Source: Thermoanaerobaculia bacterium | GTDB taxonomy: Bacteria; Acidobacteriota; Thermoanaerobaculia; Multivoradales; Multivoraceae | Assembly (NCBI GenBank): GCA_963664405.1 | Contig: OY761158.1 | Coordinates: forward strand, 3,904,001 to 3,968,000 | Length of the DNA: 64,000 nucleotides | Direction: 5' to 3' | Shown: positions 40,777 through 61,044 of the stretch, one piece after another | Layout: the number at the start of each line of letters is the position of its first letter | How positions within the stretch are numbered: position 1 is the first letter of the stretch | Notes under the pieces: generated by a model | The model's input: the letters and a program-made list of their open reading frames with translations, nothing else | What the model was told of the DNA's origin: nothing | The model's database searches: none | Program-made: the position numbers and the translations under genes

Positions 40777-40896
40777 TGTCGCACCTTCGCACATATTGCG
40801 ACAAACTGTCGTCTTTCGCCCCTGGGCCAACACGACAGTCCAACGTCTACGGGCCTTTCCGAGCATCGGTGGCGTCTTATGTGGTGGACTACGACA
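40777..40896 (+). repeat. Palindrome element A (three TGTCG...CGACA sites)
   Basis: Sites 40777-40803 (N17), 40807-40837 (N21), 40870-40896 (N17, TGGCG variant, GGTG core). Confidence 0.8.
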
Positions 40897-40957
40897 CCAC
40901 GGATCGAGCTCTGGGCCGCTGATCCCAACGGGCGACGGGTAAGATGTGGCCAAGTCA

Positions 40958-43654
40958 ATGGTTCTAGAAGCTGGCACTCTCCTCGGCCACTACGAAGTGG
41001 TTTCCTCGCTTGGCGCGGGAGGCATGGGAGAGGTCTACCGAGCCAAGGACACGAAGCTCGGACGGGAGGTGGCGATCAAACTCCTGCTCGACGAGGTGTC
41101 CTCTGATCCGCAGCGTCTCGCTCGCTTCGAGCGCGAGGCGCGGGTCCTGGCTTCGCTGAATCACAACAACATAGCCACGCTCTACGGCTTCGAGAAGGAA
41201 GGCGACACCAGCTTCCTGGTCATGGAGCTGGTCGAGGGGGAAACGCTGGCAGAGCGCATCCAGCGCGGTGCGATGCCGATCGACGAGGCGCTGCCGCTCT
41301 TCTTGCAGATCGCCGAGGGGCTTGAGGCTGCTCACGAGAAGGGCGTCATCCACCGCGACCTGAAGCCGGCGAACATCAAGATCACCGACGACCGCCAGGT
41401 GAAGATCCTCGACTTCGGATTGGCTAAGGCCATGGCTCCGGTGGTCGATGCTAGCGATCCGACGATGTCGCAGTCCCCGACACTGACCCTCGCCGCGACC
41501 CGACGTGGCGAGATTCTCGGCACCGCCGCCTACATGAGTCCGGAGCAGGCGGCCGGTAAGACACTCGATAGGCGCACCGATGTCTGGGCCTTTGGTTGCT
41601 GCCTCTTCGAGGCGCTTTCGGGACATCGAGCCTTCGAGGCCGACACCGCTCCGCAGACGGTGGCCAAAGTCCTGGAAAGGGAGCCTCTATGGGAGGCGCT
41701 ACCGCCTACAGTTCCGTCCCCGGTCGAGCGCCTTCTTCGCCGGTGTCTGCGCAAGGATCTTCGGCAGCGCCTGCACGCCATCGCGGATGCCCGGATCGAG
41801 ATCGAGGAGACGTTCAGCGGCTCGGAGGGGCAGGGGTTTGCTGCGCAACCGGCGGGAGGCCTTCGGCTTCGCAAACTGGCCAGTTGGCTCGCAATAACGG
41901 CCGCCCTCGCGTTGGGCACTGGCGCATATCTCGCCAAGAGGTTCTGGGAGACAGCGCCGGCTGTGGAGAGGCCGCCATTAATCCAGTTCTCCCTGGAAGA
42001 GGTGCTCGACCCCGGTCTCGGGCTCTCGATAGACGAGGTCGATCGACCCTCCATCGCGTTCTCATCCGACGGTCAGCATGTCGTCTTTGTGGCGAAATCG
42101 GAGGACGGGATCCGGCGCCTCCACTTGCGCAAACTCGACGAGGTGCGCGGCAGCGAGCTCCCCGGAACGGAGGGCGCCACGACAGCCTTCTTTTCACCGA
42201 ACGGCCAGTGGATCGGCTTCTTTCAGAGGTGGAAGCTGAAGAAGTTGCCGATCGCCGGGGGGACGCCCCGTACCGTCAGCTCAGGGGGCATGTACGGGGC
42301 GAGCTGGGGGCCGGATGACACGATCGTCTTTCCTATCATCGACGTATCCGGCCTTTCGATCGTCTCGGCTCAAGGAGGAACGCCCGAGGTCCTGACGGTT
42401 GTCGATCGGGAAGCAGGCGAGTTCAGTCACCGGTGGCCCCAGTTCCTTCCTGGTGGCCAAGCGATCCTCCTAACTGTGGGCCGTTCCGGGAACTGGGATG
42501 AAGCCGCCATCGCAGTCCATTCTCTAGACACCGGCGAGCGTCACATCGTCATCGAAGGGGGCACACATGCACGCTACTCGCCCACCGGACACATCGTCTA
42601 TGGCCGTGGCGGTCGTTTATGGGCGGTTCCTTTCGACCTCGCTAGCCTCGAAGTGAACGGCCCCTCGGAGCTCCTACTCGAAGGTGTGGCCCAGAGCGGC
42701 TCGAACGGAATGGCCCAGTTCGCTCTGTCTGGTCACGGTTCCCTCGTCTACGCCCCCGGTACGGTGTACACACCAAACCTGCGACTGATCTGGGTCGACC
42801 GACAGGGGAACGCCGAGCCCCTGCCTGCTCCGCCTGGTCGCTATTTTCATCCTCGGCTCTCGCCGGACGGGCGTTCGATCGCCCTTGGCATCGATGACGT
42901 ACCGCCACATATCTGGCTCTACGACATCGCCCAGCAGATGAAGCCGAAGCGGTTCACCTTCGAGTCCTACAACCGCTTTCCTATCTGGACCCCCGATGGA
43001 GTCCACGTGACCTGGGCTTCACCACGAGGTGAGAATCTGCCGGACATCTGGTGGAAAGCAGCGAATGGAGGCGGTGGCTCAGATCAACTCACTCGGAGCC
43101 GGGAGGCCGTTCAAGTTCCCCTCGATTGGGCGCGCAACGGCCAGGTGCTCCTCTTGGACTCGAAGGGCGCTGCCGGAGAGCAAGACATCTGGTCTCTGTC
43201 GCTCGGTGAGGATCCAGCGGTCCAGCCCTTCGTCGCCACTGACGCACTCGAGACCAACGCCACGTTCTCCCCGGATGGCCTCTGGGTGGCGTATCAATCG
43301 GACGAGTCGGGAAGCTACGAGATTTACGTCCAGCCGTATCCCGGTCCGGGAGGAAAGATGCAGGTCTCGAGCGAAGGCGGCAAAAGCCCCGTCTGGTCTC
43401 GCGACGGAAGCGAGATCTTCTTCCGATCCGGAGAGCGGATGATGACTGTTGAGCTCCTATCCTTTGAGCCACTGCCACAGCTAGGAAGACCCAGGGAGCT
43501 GTTTCGTGGGATCTTCTCCGGAGGCTTCGCCTATTTTCGCGGCTACGACGTCTCCGCGGACGGCCAGCGCTTTCTCATGGCACAGCATGCAGATACGGCT
43601 CCGGAGCCCAAGCCGTTGATCGTGGTGATCAACTGGCCCGAGCTACTCGAATGA
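40958..43654 (+). CDS. Ser/Thr protein kinase with TM segment and TolB-like (PD40) propeller
   Basis: GAGGMGEV, HRDLKPAN, DFGLAK, YMSPEQ; repeated xSPDG motifs. Confidence 0.93.
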   Translation: MVLEAGTLLGHYEVVSSLGAGGMGEVYRAKDTKLGREVAIKLLLDEVSSDPQRLARFEREARVLASLNHNNIATLYGFEKEGDTSFLVMELVEGETLAERIQRGAMPIDEALPLFLQIAEGLEAAHEKGVIHRDLKPANIKITDDRQVKILDFGLAKAMAPVVDASDPTMSQSPTLTLAATRRGEILGTAAYMSPEQAAGKTLDRRTDVWAFGCCLFEALSGHRAFEADTAPQTVAKVLEREPLWEALPPTVPSPVERLLRRCLRKDLRQRLHAIADARIEIEETFSGSEGQGFAAQPAGGLRLRKLASWLAITAALALGTGAYLAKRFWETAPAVERPPLIQFSLEEVLDPGLGLSIDEVDRPSIAFSSDGQHVVFVAKSEDGIRRLHLRKLDEVRGSELPGTEGATTAFFSPNGQWIGFFQRWKLKKLPIAGGTPRTVSSGGMYGASWGPDDTIVFPIIDVSGLSIVSAQGGTPEVLTVVDREAGEFSHRWPQFLPGGQAILLTVGRSGNWDEAAIAVHSLDTGERHIVIEGGTHARYSPTGHIVYGRGGRLWAVPFDLASLEVNGPSELLLEGVAQSGSNGMAQFALSGHGSLVYAPGTVYTPNLRLIWVDRQGNAEPLPAPPGRYFHPRLSPDGRSIALGIDDVPPHIWLYDIAQQMKPKRFTFESYNRFPIWTPDGVHVTWASPRGENLPDIWWKAANGGGGSDQLTRSREAVQVPLDWARNGQVLLLDSKGAAGEQDIWSLSLGEDPAVQPFVATDALETNATFSPDGLWVAYQSDESGSYEIYVQPYPGPGGKMQVSSEGGKSPVWSRDGSEIFFRSGERMMTVELLSFEPLPQLGRPRELFRGIFSGGFAYFRGYDVSADGQRFLMAQHADTAPEPKPLIVVINWPELLE

Positions 43655-43764
43655 TCGGCAAGCGCTTCATTTACCCTGCCCTAGAGTCCACACCCTTCGA
43701 AGCGGCGACACGCAGCGGAGTGGATTGGTTTCCATGTCCGGCAGGCGCTGGCGTGCCATGCTTA

Positions 43765-45769
43765 GGGTCGGCGCGGAAATAAGTTTCCAGTATCTGGGGT
43801 GACCATACCACTGCCCCCTTCTTCAGCCACCGCATAATCCTCCGGTACGCGCCTTGTTTGCAAGGTTTAGAGCTAGCATAGCCCTGCCCGCATTTGGTAT
43901 AGTTTTCCCTGTCACCTCTTTTGGAAGGGGAACTATACCAAATGGTACGAGCCGAAGATCGTGATGCAACAGTGCGCGAGCTCTTGATGAGCGAACAGAT
44001 GGCCACCATGGATGAGCTCAAGGACGCCATGGGAACCCGAGCCACCATGACGGTCTACCGTTCGCTGTCTCGATTGGGCTATTTGGCCAGCTACTCGGAT
44101 CGAGGGCGGTTCTATACCTTGAACGAGATTCCCGATTTCGACGATCTGGGTTTGTGGTCGTGCGGTTCGGCGAGGTTCAGTCGGCATGGCAGCCTCCTCG
44201 AAACTGCGGTGGCTGCCGTGGACCGGTCCGCTGCCGGCTATACGGCTTCTGAACTCGAGCTCCTGCTGCAGGTCGAGGTCAAGCACGCGATGTTGCACCT
44301 CGTTCGTCGCAAGAGAATCGTACGATCCAGAGTTGGGAATAGGTTCGTATACTTGTGCTCGGAAACAGGGCGCCGTCGTCAGCAGAAGCTGATGCGCAAC
44401 GAACGGCAGGCTCTCCAGGATGTAGCTGCCAGCCTCGTTCCAGAAGTGCTCCCCGAGGAGCTCAGGGCTGCCATCGTTTTATTCTTCAGCCTGCTAGACG
44501 AACGCCAGCGGCGGCTCTTCGCTGGCCTGGAAGCGACCAAGCTCGGGCATGGCGGCGACCGGAAGATCGCCGATCTTCTGGACCTGGACCCTCATACAGT
44601 CGCAAAAGGACGTCGCGAGCTCTTCGGCGGCTCCGTGGAGCGCGGAAGAGTTCGAAGAGCAGGCGGTGGCAACCAACGAGTGGAAAAAAAACGCCCGAGA
44701 TAGTCGATGGAATCCATTCCATACTCGAGGCCGATATAGCTGGTGATCCCATGTCATCAAAAAGATGGACGCACGAGACCGCTGCAAAGGTGGCCCAATG
44801 CCTTGCCGAACGCCTTGACATCATCGTATCGGCTACGGTGGTGCGTCGATTGCTCGCAGACCTGAACTATTCCCTCAAGAGCAATAGGAAATGTCTGTCT
44901 TCGGGGAACTCCCCAGATCGTGATGCACAGTTCAAGGCCATCAAGCGACTGCGCGAGGATTTCACAAGCGCTGGCGACCCGATCATCAGCGTCGATACGA
45001 AGAAGAAGGAGCTGATCGGTCGGTTCAAGAACCAGGGACAGACATGGTGCCGCGAGGCCAAGCGGGTCAAGGATCACGACTTCCGGTCCGAAGCTCTCGC
45101 CATCGCCTCCCCCTATGGGATCTACGATCTTCAGAGGAACTTCGGCGTTCTCGTCCTCGGACAGTCGTCGGACACGCCGGAGTTCGCTGTCAACAGCATC
45201 GCGACCTGGTGGCTCAAATACGGTCGATCTCACTATCCGGCGTCTCAGCGTCTCCTCATTCTTGCCGACAGCGGCGCAAGCAACGGCGCACGGCTTCGAG
45301 CCTGGAAGAAGTACCTCCAGGAGAAGCTCGTAGACAAGTGCGGCCTCATCATCACCGTCGCCCACTATCCAACTGGCACCAGTAAATGGAATCCCATCGA
45401 GCACAGGATGTTCAGCGAGATCAGCAAGAACTGGGCCGGAGTTCCTCTCGAGAGTTTCGAGATCCTCGTCAACCTCGTCCGCAACACGACGACATCCACC
45501 GGACTGCGCGTCGAGCCGTGCCGTGATCAACGCCAATACCAGAAAGGAGTCAGGGTATCGGACAAGGAAATGCTGCAGCTCGCGGTGGCCAGGAGCGACT
45601 TCCTAGGAAAGTGGAACTACACCCTCTCGCCGAGACCGCGAACCGAGCAGGAAGAGCTTGCCCCACAGCCTGGGCTCAGCTCACCACCACCTCCAATGCA
45701 GCGACCGCCCTGTGGCGCCTCGGCCTCACACGCTCCGGCGATAATGTGAAGTTATTTCCGCGCCGACCC
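43765..45769 (+). mobile_element. ISAzo13-family IS with frameshifted transposase (ORFs ~43942-44703 and ~44690-45749)
   Basis: 18-bp IR GGGTCGGCGCGGAAATAA; TTA duplication; LDERQRRLFAG, ISVDTKKKE, DHDF, SKWNPIEHR motifs; A8 run at 44684-44691 at the ORF junction. Confidence 0.88.
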
Positions 45770-45847
45770 TTAGGGCGGTGTACAGCCAGGCAATCGCGCT
45801 CGCCCACCGGTTCGAAACGCCTCATACACTTTGATTGACGTGAGTGC

Positions 45848-45940
45848 TGTCGCGTTTCCTGGCGCTCTGCGACAGGTATAGCCGAAAGCAGATAACCCTC
45901 TGAGAGAAGGGGCTGTCGTGAAATTCGGTGGATCGCGACA
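45848..45940 (+). repeat. Palindrome doublet B
   Basis: TGTCG-N17-CGACA at 45848-45874 and 45914-45940. Confidence 0.85.
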
Positions 45941-45956
45941 GTCCACAAACGAGGAC

Positions 45957-46568
45957 TCAGAGCGCTTTCGTCATTCGATAGAACTTCAATGCCGGTATGG
46001 GCAAGCGCTTTGGCCAATGCGACTCGACGGTCATCCCGCGGCGCTCGTAGAATCCGCGGGCTCCCTCGTTCTTGCCTGAGACGTCGAGGGATAATCGAGT
46101 CGATCCACTTGCGCGAGCCCACTCTTCAGAATAGTCCATCAAGACGGCGCCGACGCCAGCGCCGCGAAGTTCTTTATCAACAGCGATGAACTGGATGTAG
46201 AAATCGCCATCGGCAATTGAATCGGTAATCCGCATCATCGGAGCAACCAGTATTTTCACGATCCTCATTCGTAGATGACGCCTACCCGCAGCCCGCTTCA
46301 AGGGTTGGTGCGAGGAACGGCGATGCTGCTCCGCGGTGTACCCCGCGACCATTCCCACGATGACGTCGTCACGTTCTGCGAAGGTCACATTCTGGTAGGA
46401 GAGGTCGTGGTCGGGCTGGGCGAACGCCGTGGCGAGTATGTGCCCGGCGCGGCGACCGAGCCAGAAGCCGAAGAAACCCTCAGCTGATTGGTCGACGTAG
46501 CGGGCGAATACCAGACCCTCTTCGAAGGTGGGGTTGGCGGCCCGAAGGGTTACCGAATGCTGATTCAT
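45957..46568 (-). CDS. GNAT family N-acetyltransferase
   Basis: IAVDKELRGAGVG, NEGARGFYERRG motifs; start MNQHSV. Confidence 0.85.
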   Translation of the reverse strand: MNQHSVTLRAANPTFEEGLVFARYVDQSAEGFFGFWLGRRAGHILATAFAQPDHDLSYQNVTFAERDDVIVGMVAGYTAEQHRRSSHQPLKRAAGRRHLRMRIVKILVAPMMRITDSIADGDFYIQFIAVDKELRGAGVGAVLMDYSEEWARASGSTRLSLDVSGKNEGARGFYERRGMTVESHWPKRLPIPALKFYRMTKAL

Positions 46569-46656
46569 GATTGTCTGGCGAGATGCGACAAGAATAGCTC
46601 GTTCTGAATAAGCCCGCTCAGCGCCGCCGTGTCGTAGTTCTAGGTGAGGTGCGACA
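46564..46656 (+). repeat. Palindrome doublet C (first arm degenerate, overlaps GNAT start codon)
   Basis: Sites at 46564-46590 and 46630-46656. Confidence 0.75.
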
Positions 46657-46716
46657 TCACAATTCGAGCTCTGAGCCGCTGATCCACCGGGCGACGGGTA
46701 TGATGTCGCCAAGTCA

Positions 46717-49380
46717 ATGGCTCTAGAAGCTGGCACTCGCCTCGGCCACTACGAAGTGGTCTCCTCGCTCGGTGCGGGAGGCATGGGAGAAGTGTATCGA
46801 GCGAAGGACACGAAGCTCGGTCGCGAGGTAGCAGTCAAGCTCCTGCTCGACGAGGTCTCTTCTGACCCGGAGCGTCTAGCTCGCTTCGAGCGCGAGGCGC
46901 GGGTGCTCGCGTCACTCAACCACAAGAACATCGCCAGCCTCCACGCCTTCGAGCGAGAGGGTGACACGGGCTTCCTGGTCATGGAACTGGTCGAGGGCGA
47001 GACGCTGGCCGATCGGATCAGGAGAGGCGCAATCCCGGTCGATGAAGCGTTGCCGCTGTTCGTGCAGGTCGCCGAAGGCCTGGAGGCGGCACATGAGAAG
47101 GGAGTGATCCACCGGGATCTGAAGCCAGCCAACATCAAAATCTCGCCCGACGGTGTGGTCAAGATCCTGGACTTCGGCTTGGCCAAGGCCACTTCGCCAG
47201 ACCTCGATCCGGCCGCCGCGACGTTGTCGAACTCTCCGACGCTGACCCTAGCGGCGACGATGCGAGGGCAGATCCTCGGGACCGCCGCGTACATGGCCCC
47301 CGAACAGGCAAAAGGAAGTCCGGTCGACAAGCGAGCCGATCTCTGGGCCTTTGGCGCGTGCCTCTACGAGGCGATCACCGCGAAGCGCGCCTTCGACGGT
47401 AACGACGCCACCGATATCTTGGGGTCGGTCCTGAAGCTGGAGCCGGATTGGGATGCCCTACCGGCGGAGCTTCCGGACGCGCTGAAGCGAGTTCTGGAAC
47501 GTTGCCTAGCAAAGGACCCCCGTCAGCGGGCCCGAGACGCTGGCGATCTACGCCTTGACCTGGAGGCGGCTCCACGCGAGAAGCTCTCACTGTCGCCTGA
47601 GACTGCGAGGCCCGAGCACTCTCTCGTGCGATGGATTCCATGGCTCGTCGCCGCTGGTGCAATAGCCGTAGTCATCACCCTGATGGCGTCGCGCGACGAG
47701 GCCGAGCCGCAACCGCGTCCTATGACCAGAACGTCGATCGTGCTTCCCCTCGAGGCACCGCTCGCACCTCCGAGCTCCTTCCATCTGGCAATCGGCCGAA
47801 CCTCGTTGGCTCTGGCACCCGACGGCTCCTTCCTCGTTTACGTTGCCTGGGTCGACCACGCTCACCATCTCTATCGCCGTGACATGCGCTCCGGGGAGAT
47901 CACGCCCATGCAGGGGACAGAAGGGGCGCAGGGCCCTCTCTTCTCGCCCGACAGTCGGTGGGTGGGTTTCTTCGCCGACGGGCGACTCAAAAAAGTGCTC
48001 TTGGATGGCGGCGAGCCACAGGTGCTCGCCACCGCGGTCTGGGGTTCTGGCGCTGACTGGGGAAGCGATGGCCACATCTATTTCGCACCGACAGAGGCCA
48101 GCCGGATCTACCGGGTCCCAGAGAACGGTGGAGGCGCAGAGCCCGTCACCGTCTTGCCCAAGGACACGTTCATGCAGACGCATCCATGGCTCTTGCCTGG
48201 AACCCGTGACCTCATCCTCACCAGCCACTCCCAAAGGAGAAGGATTGTGTCTCGTGCGACGGTCAGTTCGTCCGAGGCTCCCTCCCTTCTGCTGGAGCGC
48301 GGCCACGGCGCACGCGTCTCTCCGAGCGGCCATCTGATCTTCATGGACGAAGGGCGACTCTTGGCCGTTGCGTACGATCGTGCCGACAAGAGTGTAGCCG
48401 GCACACCGATAGTGATCCTCGATGACGTGCGGAACGACAGTATGGCTGGACACATGTCGGCGACGTTCTCGAATAGCGGAACGCTGATATATCCGGGAGG
48501 GTCCGATATCTCTAGAGGGCGCTTCGTCTGGGCCGACCGTCAGGGAAATCGAGAACCTTTGAACCTTCCCGTGGCTTCCTACCAAGATTCCGACGTTTCG
48601 CCGGACGGTCGCACAATTGCCTATACCGTTCCCGAGGGTGTGGAGTCTCGCATCTGGGTCTACGACATCGAACGCGGGACAGCACGCCCGCTCACTCCAG
48701 GCTCTGGGCCGTTCTGGTCGAGCGTGAGCGACACCCTCTTCTACACCTCTTTCACCGATGCGGGACCGAGCGTCTGGCGCATCGGGGCCGAGGGCTCAGC
48801 ATCCCCGACGGAGGTTCTGCCTGCCCCGGCGCACCTCCAGACCCTGGGAGAGGTCGGAATCATCTATGACGTTCGCCAAGGCGACGTTTCCTTCGCGCCA
48901 TGGGCAGAGCAACTGGTGGCTGTAGATCTCGACGAGGCTCGACTGATCCTGGCCTCGGAGGCTCAGGAAACTTTCGCCGCGCTCTCGCCCGACGAGCGAT
49001 GGCTCGCCTACATGTCCGACGAGAGCGGTACTTGGGAGATCTATGTCACGGACTTCCCGGAGGCTTCGATCAAGCGCCGGGTTTCTACTGCCGGAGGCGA
49101 AGAGCCCCGTTGGAGCCCGGACGGAAGCGAGATCATCTGGCGCTTCGGCGTGGATTGGTTCTCCGTCGATTTCGACGACGGCGAGGAGATGAAGCTGGGC
49201 GCGCCCATGATCATCCTCTCGGGCCCCTTCATCAACGTCCCGGGGTGGTCCTGGGATTTCTCCCCCGACGGCCGGCGCTTCCTGGTGCTCGAGAACGAAG
49301 AGGCGAGCGAAGCGCTGACCGAGTTGGCCGTCATCCATGACTTCTTCGAAGAGGTCGAGAGGCTCGTGCCCACCGACTGA
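46717..49380 (+). CDS. Ser/Thr protein kinase with TM segment and TolB-like propeller (paralogue of 40958)
   Basis: Same kinase motifs; very similar N-terminus, divergent propeller. Confidence 0.93.
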   Translation: MALEAGTRLGHYEVVSSLGAGGMGEVYRAKDTKLGREVAVKLLLDEVSSDPERLARFEREARVLASLNHKNIASLHAFEREGDTGFLVMELVEGETLADRIRRGAIPVDEALPLFVQVAEGLEAAHEKGVIHRDLKPANIKISPDGVVKILDFGLAKATSPDLDPAAATLSNSPTLTLAATMRGQILGTAAYMAPEQAKGSPVDKRADLWAFGACLYEAITAKRAFDGNDATDILGSVLKLEPDWDALPAELPDALKRVLERCLAKDPRQRARDAGDLRLDLEAAPREKLSLSPETARPEHSLVRWIPWLVAAGAIAVVITLMASRDEAEPQPRPMTRTSIVLPLEAPLAPPSSFHLAIGRTSLALAPDGSFLVYVAWVDHAHHLYRRDMRSGEITPMQGTEGAQGPLFSPDSRWVGFFADGRLKKVLLDGGEPQVLATAVWGSGADWGSDGHIYFAPTEASRIYRVPENGGGAEPVTVLPKDTFMQTHPWLLPGTRDLILTSHSQRRRIVSRATVSSSEAPSLLLERGHGARVSPSGHLIFMDEGRLLAVAYDRADKSVAGTPIVILDDVRNDSMAGHMSATFSNSGTLIYPGGSDISRGRFVWADRQGNREPLNLPVASYQDSDVSPDGRTIAYTVPEGVESRIWVYDIERGTARPLTPGSGPFWSSVSDTLFYTSFTDAGPSVWRIGAEGSASPTEVLPAPAHLQTLGEVGIIYDVRQGDVSFAPWAEQLVAVDLDEARLILASEAQETFAALSPDERWLAYMSDESGTWEIYVTDFPEASIKRRVSTAGGEEPRWSPDGSEIIWRFGVDWFSVDFDDGEEMKLGAPMIILSGPFINVPGWSWDFSPDGRRFLVLENEEASEALTELAVIHDFFEEVERLVPTD

Positions 49381-49383
49381 GGT

Positions 49384-49476
49384 TGTCGCCTTTGCTGGCG
49401 GACCACGACAGGCATAGCTGAAAGTCGATAGGCCCAGAAATACTCGATCTGTCGCACTTCTCGGTGCCTTGCGACA
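49384..49476 (+). repeat. Palindrome doublet D
   Basis: Sites at 49384-49410 and 49450-49476, starting 3 bp after the kinase stop. Confidence 0.85.
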
Positions 49477-49600
49477 CCACAGATCGAGCTTTGAGCGACT
49501 GATCCCAACGGACGACCGGTAAGATGTTGCGAGGTCATGGTTCAAGAAGTAGTGCCTTTTCGTCTTCGATTCGGGTGATACCACGATAGGGGAGTAATTG

Positions 49601-51406: not shown

Positions 51407-51627
51407 AGCGTGGGCCTGAGTCAGGGTTTCCTCGAAGCGGCACCCACGCTTGACTCGGGCAGAGTCGGCACTGTGAGCGGGCCGCAGTGCCGGGTTGTCG
51501 CCGCCTCCTTGTTCTTGTGGATGTTGCGGAAGTCGGAGGTCTTTATGACCCCCATGAATTCGCGCAAGCTGGGGTAGCGCACGATGTGGAGGCGCCAGGA
51601 TGGGCTCTATCTCCCACCGACCGATGG

Positions 51628-51720
51628 TGTCGTGATTCCTGGCGCTCTGCGACAGGTATAGCCGAAAGCAGATAACCCTCTGAGAGAAGGGGCTGTCGTG
51701 AAATTCGGTGCTTTGCGACA
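51628..51720 (+). repeat. Palindrome doublet E
   Basis: Sites at 51628-51654 and 51694-51720. Confidence 0.85.
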
Positions 51721-51767
51721 GCTCCGAATCAGCTAGCGAGGGCTAGCGATAGACTTGCGCCTACTCA

Positions 51768-51845
51768 ATGGCGCTAGAACCAGGCACACGCCTCGGTCCC
51801 TACGAGATCGTCGAGCTGCGCGGGAAGGGCGGCATGAGAGAGGTC
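51768..51845 (+). pseudogene. N-terminal stub of a third Ser/Thr kinase
   Basis: MALEPGTRLGPYEIVELRGKGGMREV, then unrelated sequence. Confidence 0.7.
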
Positions 51846-51913
51846 TGTAGTACTGGGTTTAAGTGGCCGCTCTTCCCCTGCCCGACCTCCTGTATGCTCT
51901 CTGTCGCTCCCAT

Positions 51914-53038
51914 TGTGGGGGGCGAAAATCCTATCTGTCTCACGCAGCGAGTCGTCTGCGGTATCGATGGTGGAGTCCACCGACCTGCGGGAACGCGATC
52001 ACATGGCCCATCTCGGGTGGCTCTACCGCGCGAGGCACGGGACAGTTGTTGTCCAGGGACCGGTGAGTGCGCGCGTCATGGTAGTAGTTGACGTAGCTGC
52101 GAAGAACTCGGCGGAGGTGCTGCTCATTGAGGACCAAGACATGGTCGAGGCACTCTCGACGGATGGAGCCGATCAGCCGTTCGCAATACGGATTCTGCCA
52201 GGGCGAGTGCGGCGCAGTCTTGACCTCCTCGATGCCGATCGCCTCGATGCATCTGGCGAACTCACCAAGGAACTTCGTGTCGTTGTCACGGAGTAGGTAG
52301 CGAGGGGCGGTGTCGTAGGGAAACGCCTCGAGGAGTTGTCGAGCGGTCCAGGCGCTGGACGGCGCGTCGGTCACGTTCCAGTGGATGATTCTGCGGCGGT
52401 CGTGCGACATGACGAGCAGCACGAAGAGGACTCGAAACGTCGCCGTCGGTACGGTGAAGAAGTCGATGGCGACCGTGTCCTCGAGGTGATTGTCGAGGAA
52501 CGTTCGCCAGGTTTGGGACGGTGGGGTCCCTCGCTTTGGCCTGTATTTGGCAACGGTGGAGTCGGTCAAGCTGATGCCGAGCTTGGCGAGCTCGGACTGG
52601 ATGCGCCGCTTGCCCCAGGTCGGATTGGCGTTCCACATGTCGCGGATCAGCTTGCGCTGTTCGGGATCAATCCTCGGCCGCCCGCCCTTGGACCGGCTTT
52701 TCCGGCGCCAGTAGTACCTGAATCCAGCGCGATGCCATTTGACGACAGTGGCAGGTTGGACCAGTTGGAGCACCTCGCTCCACCTTGGCCACACGCACTT
52801 CAGCCCGATCCAAAAGAGTCGGTCTTGGTCTTCGAGTTGGGGCTTCTTTGACAGGCGATGAAGCACTGCGAGTTGGTGGCGAAGAGCGAGGTTCTCGAGC
52901 GCCAGATCGCACCTCGGCCCGAGAGCCGAGACGGCGCTGCGAAAGATGGTTCGGAGTAGTTCCCACATAGGATGCCGACTCTACCGACCGGTACGGAAGG
53001 TGAGTGATTTCAGGGCGGACGGGTATTCGCCCCCCACA
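51914..53038 (-). mobile_element. IS with rve/integrase-core transposase (IS481/IS3-like); CDS 51940-52968
   Basis: TGT...ACA ends with IR TGTGGGGGGCGAA; AIDFFTV, LLRDNDTKF, PWQNPYCERLIGSIRRECLDH motifs. Confidence 0.8.
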
Positions 53039-53115
53039 GCCGCCCAATCCGGCGCCCTTCGGCTCAGGAGAGGGTACCGCCTCATTCACTCGGTAGGTTT
53101 TGCGGATGCAGTATT

Positions 53116-53750: not shown

Positions 53751-53879
53751 CGCTACTGGAGCCGTAGGCCGCCAAGTGGCCGGTTGCCATATGGCACGTA
53801 TTGGCTTCACAACGAGGTGGCGAAGCGGTTGTGTGCGGGTGAGGGAGTCGCTAGAGGCACCCTCCGAGGTCGGTTCTGA

Positions 53880-54959
53880 TCCGCCATCGCCTTCGCTGCC
53901 CCAAGAGACATCCCGAGGACGCCGAGCGGCAAGCCAGACCTGTCGGGCAACTACGAGCTCCGCTTTCTTACCCCCTTCCAGCGCGATGCCGAGCACGGCA
54001 CCAGGATGTATATGAGCTCCGAGGAGGCGAAGGAGGTCGAGGAGGCTGCCGCCAGGAGGGTCCTACCGGAGGATGTGACGATCAATTCGAACCGCGAGCT
54101 TCCGCCGGCCGGGGGTACCGGAGTGCGTGGCAACGTGGGCGGCTACAACCAGTTCATTTGGTTCGACAGGGTCACCACGACCTTTGCCGTCGACGGAAAG
54201 TTCCGCGCCTCGATCCTCACCGACCCTTCGCATGGCCGGCTGCCGCCGCTCACCGAAACGGGCAAGCAGTGGCGCGAGGGAATGCAGCGGCGCTACAACC
54301 ACAACCCCGGGGGGGCCTGGTGGCTGGAGACCGGTGAGGATCTCTACGATCATCCCGAGGTTCAGAACCTGGGTATGCGCTGCATCTACAACACCGCGGC
54401 GACGGTGCCGGTGCGCCAGACCGGCGGCTACAACAACGTCAAGACCATCACCCAGACCGATACGCACGTGGTGATCCTCGTCGAGTGGTTCCACTGGCCT
54501 CGCATCATCCGTCTCGGCGCTGAGGGGCGTCGCCCCGAGCATCTGCCGGCGGAGATCCACTCCTTCAGCGGAGACTCGATCGGCTGGTGGGAGGGCGATC
54601 CCGCCGGAGGCGACGACACCCTGGTCGTCGACACCACCAACTTTCGCCGCCAGGGCGAGGCTCCGGTAGCGAGTGACCGCCGTCGCGCGGGGCGCGAACA
54701 GAACTTCCTGCGCGAGCCGGGAACGCCCCACGAGGGCTTGCACGTCGTGGAACGCTTCACGGCCACCGACGACGGCCTCTTCTACGAGTTCACCGTCGAA
54801 GATCCCGACTACACCGCGCCCTACAGCGGCTCACTGCCCTGGCCGCGAACCGACAGCAAGCTCTACGAGTACGCCTGCCACGAGGGCAACTACTCGATGG
54901 GCAACATGCTGCGCGGGGCGCGGTTGGCGGAGCAGGAGTGGCTCGAAGCGAACCGCTAG
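53880..54959 (+). pseudogene. Paralogue of 1661-2722 lacking most of its signal peptide and start
   Basis: In-frame AIAFAAPRDIPRTPSGKPDLSGNY upstream of ATG 54006, preceded by TGA; YEYACHEGNY at C-terminus. Confidence 0.65.
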
Positions 54960-55135
54960 CCTGGACGATTCATGAGGGTCCGTAGCGAGGTGCCGCAGAT
55001 GCCCGGAGATACAAGGCGTCGCGACCGAGGGCACCGCAGGCGTATTTGGCAGTACGTCGAGGAGCCCGAACGAGCGCAACGCAGTAGATTCGGGCAGCTG
55101 CGGCACCGCAGTAGGAGCTTCATGAATAATCCAGG
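54960..55135. mobile_element. MITE-like element 3 with CTAG target duplication
   Basis: CTAG at 54956-54959 and 55136-55139; IR CCTGGACGATTCATGA / TCATGAATAATCCAGG plus inner IR GGTGCCGCAG..CTGCGGCACC. Confidence 0.8.
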
Positions 55136-55202
55136 CTAGAGGCTAGCTCACCTCCGCCATCTCGTCGAGACGAAGATCCAGGGCTACCCGGGCCGAAAGA
55201 CC

Positions 55203-55243
55203 GTCTCGAGGCGGGGACGCAACCGCGCCACCCGCCTCGAGAC
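55203..55243 (-). terminator. Strong hairpin downstream of the TonB receptor
   Basis: GTCTCGAGGCGGG / CCCGCCTCGAGAC 13-bp stem; weak U-tract. Confidence 0.5.
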
Positions 55244-55256
55244 AGAGCTCAGAAAC

Positions 55257-57980
55257 CTAGAAACGAATCCCAACCTTGAGACGAAACTCGCGCGGCCGCT
55301 GCCAGGCCAGGAGCGAGTTGATGGGCTGAAGGGTATTGGTGTCGATCTCGAGCACCTCCTGCTGGTCGGTGATGTTGGCGACCTCGAAGCCGAGCTGCCC
55401 CTCCACTGGACCCTTGATCGGAAACGACCACATCGCCGAGAAGTCGAGCGTATAGATGCCGTCCAGCTGCTGGCCGTCGCGCGGCTCGACGCGGGTCGAG
55501 GTGTCGATCTCGAGACCGGTCACCGGATGCGCTACGGTGGTGGCGGCAGTCCCGCCGAAGTACCTGCCGGAGCTGACGGCGAAAAAGCCACCCAGGGTCA
55601 GGGCCTGCTTGCCGAACTGAAAGCGCTTCATGGCGATGAGGTTGAGCCGGTCGATATCGTGACGCAGGTGCCCGGCCCGGAACCTGGCGGTGGCGTCGGT
55701 CGCGCCAGGTGCAATACCCGCGTCCTGCACCGTTTGGTTCGGCAGCTCGAGGCCGCCGAGGCCCTCGAACAGATCCTCGAGGCTGTCGTTGGTGTCGGTA
55801 TTCCCTTCGGCGTCGCCCACCGTCAGGTTGGACCGGAACGTCCAGCCGCCGCGGAACCTGCGATTGAGCTCGAGGCTGACTGCCGAATATTCGCGAAAGG
55901 CACCGGGCCAGTTGCGGACCACGCGCGCTATGGCCGTGCCGTCGTCGATGTACTGGTCGTTGCCGAAGAAGAGGTCGTCGGTCTCGTGGTACACCAGGCT
56001 CGACTTGAAGACCCAGTTCTGCGCCAGCTGCCAGTCCACGCCAACCGCGACCTGGTCCTTGTAGGGGAGGTCGACCGGCTGCAGGGTCTGGGTCGCGAAG
56101 GCCGGCCTCCTGCTCGTGCGGAAAATATCGTAGCGCTCGGTGGCGGGATTCCAATTGAACTCGTCGTAGCTCTGATTCCCAACGGGTAGCGCACTGAACT
56201 CGCGGAAGGCGAAATCCAGGCCGATGTTCTGGTAGTAGCGCCCGACGCTGCCGCGCACCAGCAGCTTGCCGTCGGCATTGACGTCGTAGACCACGGTCAG
56301 ACGGGGTGCGATGTCGTCGGAATCGTGGATCTGCGTGCCGACGTCGTTGTCGATCGTCTCGGCGTCGTAGCGCACGCCCATGTGGAGGCTCCAGCGATCA
56401 CCGACGTCGAGGCGGTCCTGCACATAGGCCGAGCTCTCGATAGCGTCGCTGCGCGACGCCACGGACGGCAAGAAGACCCGCTTGCGCTGCGGTGTCTGGA
56501 AGCCTCCGGGGCATTCAAAACAGAAGTTTCTGCCGCGATACTCCTTGCCCGGGTTGCCCAAATTCTCGAACGCGATGTCCTGGATGTCGATGCCGAACTT
56601 GATCTCGTTGCGCCCTTTGAACAAGGTCGCCGAGCCATGGGCCGTGTCGCGAGGGAAGGTGTTGTGGCCGATCCCCTGGCCGCTCACCACGCCGTTAAAG
56701 CGAACGTTACTTTGCGCCCGATCGCGGTAGCGGAAATTGTTGTCGACCGGATTGTCGGAGCACTCGGGGCACAGTGTCGCCGGATCCTTGGGGAATTTGA
56801 GAGTGCGAGGAAAGAGATCCTTGCGCTCGGATACCTTGACCTCGATGAAGGTCGAGCTGGTAGCGGCGAAGCTCCAGCTCCCGGTCAGTACCTGCGCGTA
56901 GAGCGGACGGGCCGTGATGGCAGCACGGTCGCCGGTGCGAAAGGTGGCGGCGAGGGAGTCGCCGCGCGAATCGATCCACGTCCCCGCCAGCTGGTGGCGA
57001 TCGCTAGGCTGGTAGTTGAGCTTGAGGATGCGGGGCTCCGAGGTGCGACTGTTGTCAACCACCTCGCCGCTCGCCAATTGGTCCAGGAGGTTCTCGGTCA
57101 TATCGGCGTAGGCGGCAAAGAACCACGCCTTTTGGCGCAAGATGGGCCCGCCCAGCGACGTCTCGTAGTTGTTGACCTGGTCGTCCGGTCGCTCCAACCC
57201 GAACTGGTCCTCGGCTCTCCACTTCGGATTCTGGCCGACGTAGAGAAAATCGCCGTGAAAGTTGTTGGTGCCGGTCTTGACGGTCGAGTTGATGATGCCG
57301 CCGCTCACCCGGCCGTACTCGGCGCCGAAGCCCATCTGTTCGAGGCTGGTCTCCGACAGCGCCGACGCCGGCATGACTACGCGCGCCGCGCCCCCCGTCC
57401 GGGTGTTCGAGGTGTCCACACCTTCGATCAAGACCTGCGTCTCGGTGTAAATGCCGCCGTTGATTCCGGGCGTAGTGTCGCGCTCGTTTCTGTTCACCAC
57501 GCCGGGAAGCGCGCGAAGGGTGGAGGCATAGAAGCGACTCTCGAAGGCAACGTTCTCGATCACCTCCGACTTCAGTGAGCTGACGGAGCCGGTTTCGTAC
57601 TTGCTTATCAGCGCCGCTTCGCCGGTGACGGTGATCTCTTCCGCGCTTCCCCCTTCCAAAGTGAGGTCGACGCCACGGCGCTGACCCGGAGCGAGCGTGG
57701 TCGCCAGCTCGGCCGCCCCCAGCCCCTCCAGCTCTGCGGTGACGGTGAACTCCCCTGCCTGCAGGAGCGCGAAGCGATACCGCCCTGCGGCATCGGACAT
57801 GGTGCTCGTCGTTCGCTGCGGACCGGCCAGGGTCACCGTCGCCCCGGGCAGGGCTTGCCCCTGGGCGTCGAGGACGCGGCCGTCGATGGTTGCGGTCGAC
57901 GGACCGTCCGCCGCTAGCGGTAGAGCGCATACGGCGATGGCGCAGATGCAAATAAGTGACCTAAGTGCGATTGCCTTCAT
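55257..57980 (-). CDS. TonB-dependent receptor with CarboxypepD_reg N-domain
   Basis: Signal peptide, GQALPGATVTL, AEYGRVSGGIIN..KTGTNNFHG, terminal GIRF. Confidence 0.9.
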   Translation of the reverse strand: MKAIALRSLICICAIAVCALPLAADGPSTATIDGRVLDAQGQALPGATVTLAGPQRTTSTMSDAAGRYRFALLQAGEFTVTAELEGLGAAELATTLAPGQRRGVDLTLEGGSAEEITVTGEAALISKYETGSVSSLKSEVIENVAFESRFYASTLRALPGVVNRNERDTTPGINGGIYTETQVLIEGVDTSNTRTGGAARVVMPASALSETSLEQMGFGAEYGRVSGGIINSTVKTGTNNFHGDFLYVGQNPKWRAEDQFGLERPDDQVNNYETSLGGPILRQKAWFFAAYADMTENLLDQLASGEVVDNSRTSEPRILKLNYQPSDRHQLAGTWIDSRGDSLAATFRTGDRAAITARPLYAQVLTGSWSFAATSSTFIEVKVSERKDLFPRTLKFPKDPATLCPECSDNPVDNNFRYRDRAQSNVRFNGVVSGQGIGHNTFPRDTAHGSATLFKGRNEIKFGIDIQDIAFENLGNPGKEYRGRNFCFECPGGFQTPQRKRVFLPSVASRSDAIESSAYVQDRLDVGDRWSLHMGVRYDAETIDNDVGTQIHDSDDIAPRLTVVYDVNADGKLLVRGSVGRYYQNIGLDFAFREFSALPVGNQSYDEFNWNPATERYDIFRTSRRPAFATQTLQPVDLPYKDQVAVGVDWQLAQNWVFKSSLVYHETDDLFFGNDQYIDDGTAIARVVRNWPGAFREYSAVSLELNRRFRGGWTFRSNLTVGDAEGNTDTNDSLEDLFEGLGGLELPNQTVQDAGIAPGATDATARFRAGHLRHDIDRLNLIAMKRFQFGKQALTLGGFFAVSSGRYFGGTAATTVAHPVTGLEIDTSTRVEPRDGQQLDGIYTLDFSAMWSFPIKGPVEGQLGFEVANITDQQEVLEIDTNTLQPINSLLAWQRPREFRLKVGIRF

Positions 57981-58137
57981 GATCCGGTCCTTCAGTTTCT
58001 CGACCTTGGCGTGACCACCGAGCCGTTCTGTGGGCACAGCGGCCTAACGTAGCCACTACTCGAATTCTTTTGGTAATGATACCTCATGCCGGTCGAGTTG
58101 ACACAATGTTTAGAGATCTTGTTGCGAATACAATGCC

Positions 58138-58195
58138 AATCCACATGTTGTGTACTGGGGGGGGGCTGACGCAGGTCGGATACCATATGTTGTGT
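58138..58195. promoter_or_regulatory. Two NrdR-box-like sequences 42 bp apart
   Basis: AATCCACATGTTGTGT (58138) and ATACCATATGTTGTGT (58180) in an AT-rich intergenic region. Confidence 0.4.
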
Positions 58196-58311
58196 TTTAG
58201 CTAGAACCCCATACTCAAAAAAATGCATCGATATTCAAAGTTTTGGATATCCGGACCGTTTGAGGATGAAGGCAAAGTGATCGTTCTGGTCCTGAAAAGC
58301 GCGAACGAGGC

Positions 58312-58674
58312 CTAGGCGCCCAGAGCCACCAGAAGCTCCACTACAAGTACCAACACTCTTCGATCTGGCACATCGAGTACTCCCTCGACGATCTCCCCGT
58401 CGAGGAGGTGCTCCACAACGACTATGTCGCCATGATCGCTCTGTACGGGCAGCTAGTGGAGAGCGACCTCGTACCCGATCCGGCAACGCTCGCCGAAGGC
58501 CTTGCGGATCCCCCTAGCGAGGCCGTGGTTACCAGTTTCGAGGAGTGGAGGCCATCTAGTAAAGGCAAGAGCCCAGGTCTTGTTGTTTCCCTAAGCTTGA
58601 CGCCTTCGGGGGAGGACCACTCACAAAGATTCTTCGACATCATCACGGGGCGCGAACAGCGCGCCATCCCATGA
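58312..58674 (+). pseudogene. Fragment resembling the end of a McrB-N/DUF3578 domain
   Basis: YQHSSIWHIEYSLDDLPVEEVLHNDYVAMIALY in frame with ORF 58408; similarity judged by eye only. Confidence 0.3.
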
Positions 58675-58760
58675 TATTTTCACCCCACGGCCACGACGAG
58701 AGTCCAACATCTACGGGCTCTAGCGAGCACCGCTGTCGTCTTCTGTGGTGCCTTGCGACA
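58672..58760 (+). repeat. Palindrome element F (left part resembles element A)
   Basis: Degenerate site from ~58672 and intact TGTCG-N17-CGACA at 58734-58760. Confidence 0.75.
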
Positions 58761-58889
58761 CCACAGATCGAGCTTTGAGCGACTGATCCCAACGGACGAC
58801 CGGTAAGATGTTGCCAAGTCATGGTTCAAGAAGCAGTAGCGCGCCTTTTCGTCTTCGATTCGGGTGATACCACGATAGGGGAGTAATTG

Positions 58890-60730
58890 ATGACAAGAGT
58901 CCATCGCATTGCCGCGCTGACGGTCGGCGCATTGACTGCCACTTACGCCGCGGGTGCGGAGCGGAACGCCTATTTCGGTGATCTGCACATCCATACGCGC
59001 TTTTCGTTCGACGCGTTCACCTTCGGCACCCGCGCGACACCCGACGACGCATACCGTTATGCCCGCGGGGAGGCGATCAAACACCCCGCCGGCTTCGATA
59101 TTCAGCTCGATCGGCCGCTCGACTTCTACGCCGTCACCGACCACGCCCGGTATCTCGGCAGGTGGTCGGCGATGATGGATCCCAATCATCCTCTGGCGCA
59201 GAGTCCTGAAATCCAGCCCTTTTTCGATGCGAAAAAACTCGCCGAGACGGGTGTGTCCCGACAAACAGCCGTCCGTGGCAGGAGCTTCTTCACCGCCCAT
59301 CCCGACCCGGAGGCCACACGTTCGGCTTGGCGGGAGACCATCGCTTCGGCGGAGCGAAATTACGAGCCGGGCAAGCTCACCACGTTCGTCGCCTACGAAT
59401 ACACGTCATCGGGGACCGATGGGGGCAATCAACACCGCAACGTCATTTTCCGCAGTGCGAAAGCGCCGGAGGTACCCTTCTCTCGACTCGACTCGCCGAA
59501 CCCCGAAGATCTGTGGGACTGGCTCGAGGGCTTGCGCGCACAGGGCATCGAGGCGCTGGCGATCCCCCATAACTCGAACCAAAGCGCAGGCCATAAGTTC
59601 GCGCGCCAGAAGAATTCGGGCGAGCCCTTCGACGCGGCCTATGCCCGGCTGCGGATGCGCAACGAGCCACTGGTCGAGGTCACACAGATCAAGGGCACTT
59701 CGGAGACACACCCCCTGCTCTCGACCAACGACGAGTGGGCGAACTTCGAGATCGAGTTTCTCCCCCCCGCCAATAGGAAGCTTGAGTACGTCCGTGGCAG
59801 CTATGTGCGCGAAGCCTACCTGACCGGTCTCGAGCTCGAGGAAAACGAGGGCTTCAACCCTTACCGCTTCGGGATGATCGGCTCGAGCGACGGCCACAAT
59901 GGGGGCTCCGCTTATCAGGAGTCGAAGTTCTTCAGCAAGCTCGGTGTCCTTGATGCGACGCCGGAGCTGCGCGGCTCTGTGCCCGCGGGGGGTGCTCAGG
60001 CCTGGGGCGACGTTTCACAGACCACGGGAAGGGCTGCCAGGGTGCCAAAGCCTCCAAGCCAAAGGGGCGGCCAGACCTGGGGCGCTTCGGGCTTGGTGGC
60101 GTGTGGACCGAGGAGAACACCCGCGAATCGATCTATGACGCGTTCCGCCGCAAAGAGACGTTCGCCACTAGCGGGCCGCGCATCCGGGTGCGTTTGTTCG
60201 CCAGCTACGACTTCAAGGGCGATGCGCTCGAAGACAAGGATCTGATGGCAAAGGCCTACGAGCACGGTGTGCCGATGGGCGCCGACCTCCCGGCCCGTCG
60301 CCGCGGCGCACCCCAGTTCCTGGTCTGGGCGGTGCAGGACCCCGAGTCGACGAAACTCCAGCGCCTGCAGGTGATCAAGGGCTGGATCGAGGCCGGCCGG
60401 CCGCAGGAGCGGGTCTACGATGTCGCCTGCTCGGACGGTCTCGAGGTCGACCGCCAAACTCATCGCTGCCCCGACAACGGCGCCGAGGTGGATCTTGCGG
60501 ACTGCAGCGTCAGCGCCAACCTCGGCGCGGCGCAGCTCGAAACTCTCTGGGCCGATCCCGACTTCGACCGCCGTCAACGTGCCTTCTACTATGTGCGCGT
60601 GCTCGAGAATCCGTCTTGCCGCTGGTCCACCTGGGACGCCATCCGGGCGGGCACGCCGCCTCGACCCGGTCTTGCGACCACGCTTCAGGAGCGCGCCTTT
60701 TCGTCTCCGATTTGGTTGATCCCACGGTAA
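58890..60730 (+). pseudogene. DUF3604 protein copy 2, frameshifted at ~60097
   Basis: Near-identical to copy 1; GGCTTGGTGGCGTG versus GGCTTGGCGGGCGTG (1 nt shorter). Confidence 0.8.
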
Positions 60731-60951
60731 AGCGTGGGCCTGAGTCAGGGTTTCCTCGAAGCGGCACCCACGCTTGACTCGGGCAGAGTCGGCACTGTGA
60801 GCGGGCCGCAGTGCCGGGTTGTCGCCGCCTCCTTGTTCTTGTGGATGTTGCGGAAGTCGGAGGTCTTTATGACCCCCATGAATTCGCGCAAGCTGGGGTA
60901 GCGCACGATGTGGAGGCGCCAGGATGGGCTCTATCTCCCACCGACCGATGG

Positions 60952-61044
60952 TGTCGTGATTCCCGGCGGTCTGCGACACGCATAGCCGGAAGCAGATAAG
61001 CCTTCGAGCAGAGGTGTTGTCGTGAAATTCGGTGCTCTGCGACA
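60952..61044 (+). repeat. Palindrome doublet G
   Basis: Sites at 60952-60978 and 61018-61044. Confidence 0.85.

Follow-up and report, generated by a model that had tools for sequence, protein, structure and literature searches.

Paired 27-bp sites delimit candidate cassette arrays of kinase-propeller and other genes in a Thermoanaerobaculia bacterium

Introduction

What kind of system sets pairs of short inverted-arm sites, at a fixed distance from each other, between one gene module and the next? This question is raised by a 64,000-nt stretch of DNA from a Thermoanaerobaculia bacterium (Acidobacteriota; assembly GCA_963664405.1), namely positions 3904001-3968000 of the single 6.78-Mb contig OY761158.1 (63.7% G+C), hereafter termed the window, in which elements built from TGTCG-N17-CGACA sites lie among kinase, acetyltransferase, and other genes. 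The textbook example of a system for stockpiling and shuffling genes is the integron; Xer/pdif modules have recently become a second one. A first, sequence-only reading of the window proposed an undescribed, integron- or pdif-like gene-cassette array inside a tRNA-integrated island. We followed up this proposal by computation, and our analyses indicate that the 27-bp sites are probably double-stranded recombination sites and that the arrays that they punctuate are built from exchangeable modules. A literature search at the level of titles and abstract openings returned no published description of these sites.

Results

Anatomy and distribution of the sites

A pattern search of the window returned 11 exact matches to TGTCG-N17-CGACA, all of them within 40777-61044, compared with 0.19 expected (sd 0.42), and none of 100 shuffled sequences reached 11. 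The seven elements of the sequence-only reading, A to G, were all recovered at their positions (given below in window coordinates). A complete junction measures 93 bp and comprises a first site, S1 (27 bp, core GGCG), a 39-nt linker, and a second site, S2 (27 bp, core GGTG).

40777-40896, plus strand: head A, with an inverted site (40777-40803), a 31-bp TGTCG-N21-CGACA palindrome (40807-40837), and an S2-type site (40870-40896; left arm TGGCG, core GGTG)
45848-45940, plus strand: junction B, with S1 (45848-45874), linker, and S2 (45914-45940)
46564-46656, plus strand: junction C, with an S1 of degenerate left arm, linker, and S2 (46630-46656); nhmmer E = 1.1e-13
49384-49476, plus strand: junction D, with S1 (49384-49410) and S2 (49450-49476)
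51628-51720, plus strand: junction E, with S1 (51628-51654) and S2 (51694-51720)
58672-58760, plus strand: F, a head cut off on its 5' side that starts a second array, with S2 (58734-58760); the 60 nt before this S2 resemble the head linker of A
60952-61044, plus strand: junction G, with S1 (60952-60978) and S2 (61018-61044)

In agreement with the first description, B, D, E, and G are paired sites with an S1-to-S2 offset of exactly 66 bp, and C differs from them in the degenerate left arm of its first site. The cores, at site positions 14-17, read GGCG in the first and GGTG in the second site of B, C, D, E, and G; the third core base (site position 16) is T in all 55 aligned S2 sites. Around this invariant 4-bp core, each site has variable inner arms and the inverted outer arms TGTCGY and RCGACA, while the linker keeps ATAGC and GATA(A/G). 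The packing of genes against the elements is also as tight as had been described: the ORF of the second kinase ends at 49380, 3 bp before D, and the minus-strand GNAT ORF ends at 45957, 16 bp after B. Two points needed correction. A and F, which had been grouped with the other elements, form a separate class of head elements, and the sites at 40777-61044, which had been read as a single array, belong to two arrays, the second of which begins with F as its 5'-truncated head.

Genome-wide, the N17 spacing yielded 118 matches, clustered in few regions, compared with 6-32 matches for each of the other spacings from N10 to N25; a profile built from 20 double elements gave 64 genome hits at E ≤ 0.01. 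The sites define seven co-oriented arrays that make up 3.2% of the genome, six of them in addition to that of the window, whose second array continues to genome position 3979924. These arrays contain 50 of the 55 exact S1 and 31 of the 33 exact S2 sites (cores required), and each of the 95 sites that deviate from the pattern by no more than one mismatch is on the strand of its array. The scatter across the genome that had been named as an argument for a transcription-factor site or a free repeat was thus not observed. Junctions take three forms (S1, linker, and S2; S1 only; S2 only), and half elements occur as well; among the 28 double junctions, 26 have GGCG first and GGTG second. Array ORFs are nearly all co-oriented; they stop a few bases from S1, and 47-62 nt separate their start from the last site of the junction before them. 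The elements separate 31 kinase-PD40 ORFs or fragments and about 30 unrelated ORFs, with annotated cargo that includes kinase, GNAT, DUF3604, sulfatase, PLD-like, DUF3047, DUF1326, and amidohydrolase genes.

Nine array starts share a head layout in which an inverted 27-bp site is followed by 3 bp, a TGTCG half-site or a 31-bp palindrome (in the window, TGTCG-N21-CGACA), about 32 bp, and an S2-type site, after which come a normal leader and gene; a tenth head adjoins a resolvase gene. The left flanks of the heads have no gene in common, and the only DNA shared there is 150 bp, in three heads.

Identity switches within the site cores

An all-versus-all megablast comparison of the seven arrays returned 13 shared segments (length ≥250 bp, identity ≥93%), six of which are copies of one IS91-like insertion sequence. 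The other seven comprise four cassettes that end in sites, one kinase 3' end that extends up to S1, and two segments that end off site. Among the shared cassettes are one of 3827 bp in arrays R1 and R3 (99.7% identity), one of 860 bp in R3 and R7 (98.4%), and a 582-bp segment in R2 and R7 (99.5%); such near-identical cassettes sit in different arrays beside unrelated neighbors. We aligned seven junction pairs base by base, and in six of them identity flips between 0.27-0.34 and 0.87-1.00 within the site; for the right pair of the third case, the flip was recognized by inspection only, as a 1-nt offset gives a printed left-side figure of 0.31. At the near end of the 3827-bp cassette, identity is 27% left of S1 position 12 and 100% right of it; at the far end, it is 100% up to position 17 and 31% beyond. 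The R2/R7 and R3/R7 cassettes switch in the same manner, and the DUF3604 cassette of the window switches in the S2 core, being preceded by S1 and linker at D and by a head at F. Across these cases, differences linked to the left side reach site position 13 and those linked to the right side begin at position 18, which places the exchange within the four invariant bases.

The two halves of a site also part company elsewhere. In R1, R2, and R3, one kinase 3' end recurs with the same left half of S1, but the right half that follows is a different one in each array. Among the 378 pairs of the 28 double junctions, nine are ≥93% identical in their middle segment (S1 position 18 through S2 position 13), and in eight of these nine both flanks are unrelated (upstream 25-33%, downstream 29-73% identity). 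Junctions B and E have an identical middle, which recurs in two junctions of other arrays, with differing flanks; beginning with its S1 core, G is the same as a junction at genome position 6520286, in another array, but the left S1 halves of the two differ. The left halves of S2 correlate with the upstream flank (r = 0.31) and the right halves with the downstream flank (r = 0.27), whereas the two halves show no correlation between themselves (r = -0.01). Among the 23 full-length kinases, amino-acid identity spans 31-99.8% (median, 43%), and the nearest paralog of a kinase resides in another array in 22 cases and next to it in one. Module content and order do vary at the sites, contrary to what had been named as a refutation of the cassette proposal.

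These switch points bear on two alternatives. In the first, tandem duplication, with homologous recombination or gene conversion among paralogous arrays, would have produced the mosaic, and the sites would be conserved intergenic sequence only. The many paralogs, with homologous leaders of about 58 nt, could support RecA-dependent exchange; however, the switches fall in a 4-bp core amid variable half-sites and not in these much longer conserved leaders. As the identities at the switch are blocks of only 4-5 bp, homologous recombination is an unlikely cause, and the flanks beyond it, at 27-34% identity, offer no homology to drive an exchange. Moreover, the nearest paralog is adjacent for only one of the 23 kinases, and we consider this explanation very unlikely.

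The second alternative is a selfish short repeat, of the REP/BIME or MITE-like type, that has spread into intergenic gaps. The element is indeed a short, palindrome-containing repeat that lies only between genes and that occurs in half forms. Against a free repeat stand the strict co-orientation with genes, the confinement to arrays, the start of S1 a few bases from stop codons, and the fixed distance from the site to the next ATG. Furthermore, the 93-bp unit has, by eye, no terminal inverted repeats and no target duplications, and the mosaic breaks lie inside the element and not at its ends. We regard such an origin as highly improbable. A site-specific recombinase, we infer from these alignments, would have made the joints.

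Cassette leaders and a possible regulatory role

A -10-like hexamer precedes the ATG by 10-13 nt at 37 of 67 junctions, compared with 0.6% of random windows, a count that overstates the number of independent cases because many of the leaders (about 58 nt) are homologous. The hexamers are TAAGAT (20), TAGAAT (6), TATGAT (6), TAGACT (4), and TACAAT (1), and the distance from site to ATG is either 47-49 nt (5 junctions) or 57-62 nt (32 junctions), that is, two classes about one helical turn apart. Read by eye, the junction sequences show neither an obvious Shine-Dalgarno sequence nor an obvious -35 box. Judging from these leaders, cassettes seem to bring their own promoter and a nearly leaderless start, and the upstream site could also serve regulation, by analogy with res sites, which double as operators. 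The DUF3604 leaders at 49536-49550 and 58820-58834 of the window retain the kinase-type leader together with an ATG that is out of the DUF3604 frame; this may be what is left of a kinase 5' end, or a short upstream ORF.

The sites might instead be operators or activator sites of a dimeric transcription factor, the arrays having grown by duplication without recombination. The arms are palindromic, and the enrichment of the box, the clustering of ATG distances, and the lack of an obvious -35 box or Shine-Dalgarno sequence all speak in its favor. A regulator does not explain, however, why identity changes abruptly within the cores, where flanks that are otherwise unrelated meet, why the nearest kinase paralog usually resides in another array, or why S1 stands at the 3' ends of genes. 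Moreover, a dispersed regulon was not found, as only 5 of the 55 exact S1 and 2 of the 33 exact S2 sites are located outside the arrays, and the cargo of the metagenomic relatives described below is unrelated. The half-sites are 22 bp apart, center to center, a spacing that would be unusual for a simple dimeric operator and that would better fit a recombinase dimer. Taken together, we judge a purely regulatory role to be unlikely.

The sites as duplex or folded elements

An integron array, or a cluster of attC sites lacking an integron integrase (CALIN), would have the co-oriented single-gene cassettes, the distinct first site, and the diverse cargo that we observed. attC sites are described as folded bottom-strand hairpins that are recognized by IntI (PMC8618304). 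The integron-integrase model TIGR02249 had no match above its 265-bit cutoff anywhere in the genome; the best match scored 122 bits and left the model positions between its two matched stretches unmatched. Single-strand DNA folds of four elements, on both strands, gave z scores from -2.85 to +0.47, with six of the eight no better than shuffles, and the predicted folds differed between copies of the element. The RNAalifold consensus of the top-strand alignment reached -5.25 kcal/mol with a covariation term of -0.2, and none of its eight pairs was compensatory. Variation at arm position 6 (Y) is independent of that at position 22 (R) (C/A, 20; C/G, 17; T/A, 9; T/G, 7; G/A, 1). With arms that vary independently and with neither covariation nor a shared fold, the arms are best understood as half-sites that are read on duplex DNA, and an ordinary integron or CALIN with unusual attC sites is scarcely credible.

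The same consensus fold bears on a structured RNA, such as an intergenic processing signal, a terminator, or a riboswitch. A short hairpin can often be made out by eye in the 3' half of the linker, but Rfam yielded no match at gathering threshold in the window, and the top-strand consensus is without compensatory pairs. We attach almost no probability to this explanation.

Other features of the window and its island

The cassettes and further features of the window are as follows.

40487-40540, minus strand: tRNA-Ala 3' fragment, a direct repeat that marks the island boundary (100% identity over 49 nt at two other places in the genome)
40627-40776, strand unassigned: 150-bp head flank, common to two other heads, which reads like a cassette leader in inverted orientation
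40958-43654, plus strand: cassette gene 1, Ser/Thr kinase with PD40 beta-propeller repeats (Pkinase 5.9e-52, PD40 6.2e-17); a TAAGAT box lies at 40940-40945, and the ORF list has an in-frame GTG at 40946
44355-45749, plus strand: DDE transposase of the ISAzo13 family (PF07592, 5.6e-111), an insertion sequence inside the array
45957-46568, minus strand: GNAT acetyltransferase cassette gene (PF00583, 1e-15), opposite to the array; the longest ORF extends to 46736, and an ATG inside C, at 46566-46568, was read from the sequence by eye
46717-49380, plus strand: Ser/Thr kinase-PD40 paralog 2, cassette gene (Pkinase 1.1e-49, PD40 1.4e-14)
49598-51406, plus strand: DUF3604 cassette gene (PF12228, 6.6e-224)
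51768-52091, plus strand: start of a further cassette ORF (MALEPG...; 107 aa, no Pfam match)
51940-52968, minus strand: insertion-sequence gene that overlaps the MALEPG ORF (rve_3, 8.2e-14)
58887-60730, plus strand: second DUF3604 cassette copy, frameshifted (PF12228, 2.7e-119, model positions 3-360 only)

The flank at 40627-40776 is 90-95% identical over 148-161 bp among the three heads that share it, with nothing shared further left. The first array ends at 51768-52968, where a cassette ORF would have been truncated by an insertion sequence; a Pfam scan of the interval between E and F returned insertion sequences and a TonB-dependent receptor. The DUF3604 copy at 58887 is 94.5% identical over 2317 bp to the cassette between D and E. 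In the same E-F interval, contigs of four public sequencing runs show many joints that skip 87-264 bp at 54590-54870, and the summed read depth in the bin 54707-55373 is in the thousands; the 3' end of a 317-aa ORF (54006-54959, no Pfam family) lies there. These features suggest a repetitive stretch that is common to other organisms.

ARAGORN found no whole tRNA in the window. The 54-nt tRNA-Ala 3' fragment shares 49 nt with genome position 3981680 and with the intact tRNA-Ala(GGC) at 3990927-3991002 (complementary strand), and a 424-aa integrase gene with an arm-binding domain lies beside the former repeat, past the end of the window (genome 3981845-3983119). The repeats and the integrase place the arrays of the window in a tRNA-Ala island, as had been supposed. 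A recombinase gene had likewise been expected past window position 64000, and one is present there, but by its domains this integrase is of the ordinary island type, and we saw no link between it and the cassette sites. The 49-nt repeat occurs at two further places (genome 5077939 and 5082081), with a tyrosine recombinase gene fragment at 5078014, and probably marks a similar island there.

Outside the window, a second palindrome, GCACCT..AGGTGC, of 23 nt, directly adjoins TGTCG sites and delimits sulfatase, PLD-like, and unknown cassettes (genome 3979823, 3979932, 5002396, 6514874, 2758773, and 6018756). The GCACCT...AGGTGC pattern has 11 matches in the genome, about seven of them in the 23-nt form, and may represent a second type of site. 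In contrast, TGGCA-N17-TGCCA was rejected as a second site family, as its N17 spacing is not enriched (7 matches versus 2-11 at other spacings).

Candidate recombinases

None of the 25 genome places that match PF00589, and none of the 12 that match PF00239, falls in the window, in line with the earlier statement that no recombinase is seen there. One candidate encoded elsewhere is a tyrosine recombinase of 175 aa that consists of the catalytic domain only (PF00589, 3.2e-29; L011:3065-3589, minus strand, genome 5456065-5456589). Its gene directly follows the last S1 and linker of R8, at the far end, and precedes an S2-like site, and it is carried like a cassette; a 205-bp remnant of it, encoding 36 aa at 83% identity, lies at the end of R3. 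The 175-aa protein has no close homolog in the three other genomes that carry the element (best 32-42% identity) and none on the external metagenome loci.

Two small resolvases that are 91% identical to each other (L013:6415-7104 and genome 2755044-2755679) are a further possibility. The first adjoins the tenth head in divergent orientation, at about 190 bp once a 2.6-kb insertion is discounted, which makes one of ten heads near a resolvase. The upstream region that both resolvases share contains GCTAAA-type palindromes and not TGTCG, and the best match in the three other element-bearing genomes has 34% identity, with no close ortholog among them. On this sequence evidence, the resolvase is a weak candidate for the array recombinase. 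The second resolvase, located 2 kb away from the point at which the cumulative GC skew is lowest (2752899), is oriented toward a kinase cassette with TGGCA/TGCCA arms in its sites.

A XerC/D-like pair (340 and 329 aa) is another candidate. The dif site of the host was not found; the GC-skew extremes are at 2.753 and 6.765 Mb, and no S-type site with a GGYG core was present near the maximum, while an S1-like site lies 8.6 kb from the minimum.

The 424-aa integrase, of P4 type, belongs to the tRNA-Ala island and was set aside. A last, less likely candidate is a 286-aa tyrosine recombinase encoded by an IS91-family element, along with a 408-aa Y2 transposase with a zinc-binding domain; this element is a passenger that inserts into junctions, and its enzyme is not evidently the array recombinase. 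Five such IS91-like copies are present (L002:11711-13816, which is genome 41711-43816, and four at genome 35, 597, 616, and 888 kb); four of the five are in R1 and R2, two being inserted right after the linker ATAAG and one inside a head S2, and a related end cuts the head beside the resolvase. The junction element looks like a preferred target of this IS91-like element.

As to the type of enzyme, we lean slightly toward a serine recombinase. This preference stems from the invariance of only four central bases, from the restriction of the switch to these four, and from the outer position of the conserved bases in the half-sites, and partly from a putative res consensus with TGTC at its start, for which the literature search returned no source.

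Occurrence in other genomes and in metagenomes

The scan of the genome that had been suggested with the cassette proposal yielded the seven arrays; in the scan of relatives, the double pattern was absent from all 60 relatives examined, and S1 followed by ATAGC was present in none of 400 genomes of the same class, compared with 36 occurrences in this genome. A scan of one genome per species (185,579 genomes) returned 34 stretches, and the profile confirmed the element in three other genomes, two from Acidobacteriota/Acidobacteria and one from Myxococcota, with few copies each. In these genomes, the element separates an MFS transporter gene or an unknown gene from a hydrolase gene, follows a kinase-PD40 gene, or precedes a sulfatase gene.

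Metagenome contigs yielded 93 stretches, and 112 element matches were confirmed on 78 of the 80 loci fetched, often as two or three elements that lie 300-900 bp apart on one contig. A small number of metagenome projects, on sediment and water, contain the element frequently, whereas in assembled genomes it is rare. Of ten cassette ORFs inspected on these contigs, six match a family at full score (DUF218, TPR, DsbA-like, MBL-fold, DUF4345, and DUF2975), one has a subthreshold match to DUF1554, and three have no match. In an alignment of 55 sequences, S2 and GATA are conserved even though they lay outside the search pattern. Short-read binning may systematically miss such arrays.

Discussion

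How would such arrays work? In the mechanism that we propose, a recombinase dimer would bind the arms of a site and exchange strands within the 4-bp core. S1 follows the stop codon of a cassette gene, and S2 stands 66 bp further on, before the next leader; the exchanges that we see pair S1 with S1 and S2 with S2. A gene module would then consist of the right half of S2, a leader, a gene, and the left half of S1, and a linker module (about 62 bp) of the right half of S1, the linker, and the left half of S2, the two being joined in many combinations across the seven arrays. The one-base difference between the cores would keep S1 and S2 apart, in the manner of heterospecific lox or FRT sites. Each array starts with a head of three sites or half-sites, which may play the role of attI in an integron. 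With its own -10-like box, and with some 53 or 63 bp between the site and its likely start, a cassette would need no array promoter, and the array recombinase would act in trans.

Several observations weigh against this interpretation. No recombinase is linked to the arrays, and the left flanks of the heads are without a shared gene; the 436 kb of external loci hold a single tyrosine-recombinase match (on L092, whose element is unconfirmed by nhmmer) and no serine recombinase. Two shared segments, of 1669 bp in R2 and R5 and of 1564 bp in R3 and R7, end away from any site, and the correlations between half-site and flank that were seen for S2 are near zero for S1 (0.07 and 0.09). The -10-like box and the ATG spacing would suit an operator or activator site as well. 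All exchange events are inferred from one genome and may be old. Finally, of six public runs that hold the stretch, the four examined gave short, low-depth pieces with many joints between kinase paralogs, and their contigs yielded nothing usable on circles, empty sites, or cassette order.

We grade the broader proposal below the identification of the sites. That the arrays constitute a third cassette platform beside integrons and Xer/pdif, in which a non-IntI recombinase acts on two heterospecific duplex sites and natural cassette exchange of promoter-bearing gene modules and 62-bp linker modules has diversified more than 20 kinase-propeller proteins, is a tentative proposal to which we give slightly less than an even chance. 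If it is correct, cassette platforms have evolved more than once, a new recombinase-site pair with possible use as a tool is at hand, and the way in which this lineage built and reassorted a large kinase-propeller gene family is explained.

Comparison with known systems

The integron- or pdif-like character that was first proposed holds as an analogy, and membership in either family does not. Like integrons and CALIN, the arrays consist of mostly single-gene, co-oriented cassettes behind a distinct first site, with a repeated site at the boundaries, diverse cargo, and the same cassette in several arrays. Unlike integrons, they have no IntI gene and no folded single-strand attC sites; their sites are of a 27-bp duplex type with conserved outer arms and a 4-bp core and are paired with different cores, cassettes reach 3.8 kb, and many cassettes have their own promoter-like box. 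At least seven arrays occur in one genome, and nine of ten heads have no recombinase gene beside them.

The pdif modules of Acinetobacter plasmids depend on XerC/XerD and have 11-6-11 sites that are related to the host dif and that alternate in orientation around each module. The present arrays resemble them in having short inverted-arm sites around a central region, mosaic breaks in the sites, and a recombinase that is not encoded beside the modules. They differ from them in that all 95 sites are co-oriented and do not alternate, that the arrays are chromosomal, and that the site sequence appears unrelated to dif.

The res sites of Tn3/gamma-delta, Sin, and beta measure 90-120 bp and contain several dimer-binding sites of about 25-34 bp; they resolve cointegrates and are not known to bound cassette arrays. 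They share with the present junctions several dimer sites, half-site bases conserved at the outer ends, a linker that possibly receives a bending protein, and exchange at the very center. In contrast to res, a 27-bp site gives no central dinucleotide on the symmetry axis.

Engineered lox or FRT cassette exchange offers a parallel to the paired cores, in that two site variants that differ only in the core flank a swappable module; it is, however, a laboratory design, whereas the incompatibility of GGCG and GGTG is suggested here by their conservation alone. On the features that define integrons and pdif modules the system belongs to neither, and it is best described as a set of site-specific cassette arrays.

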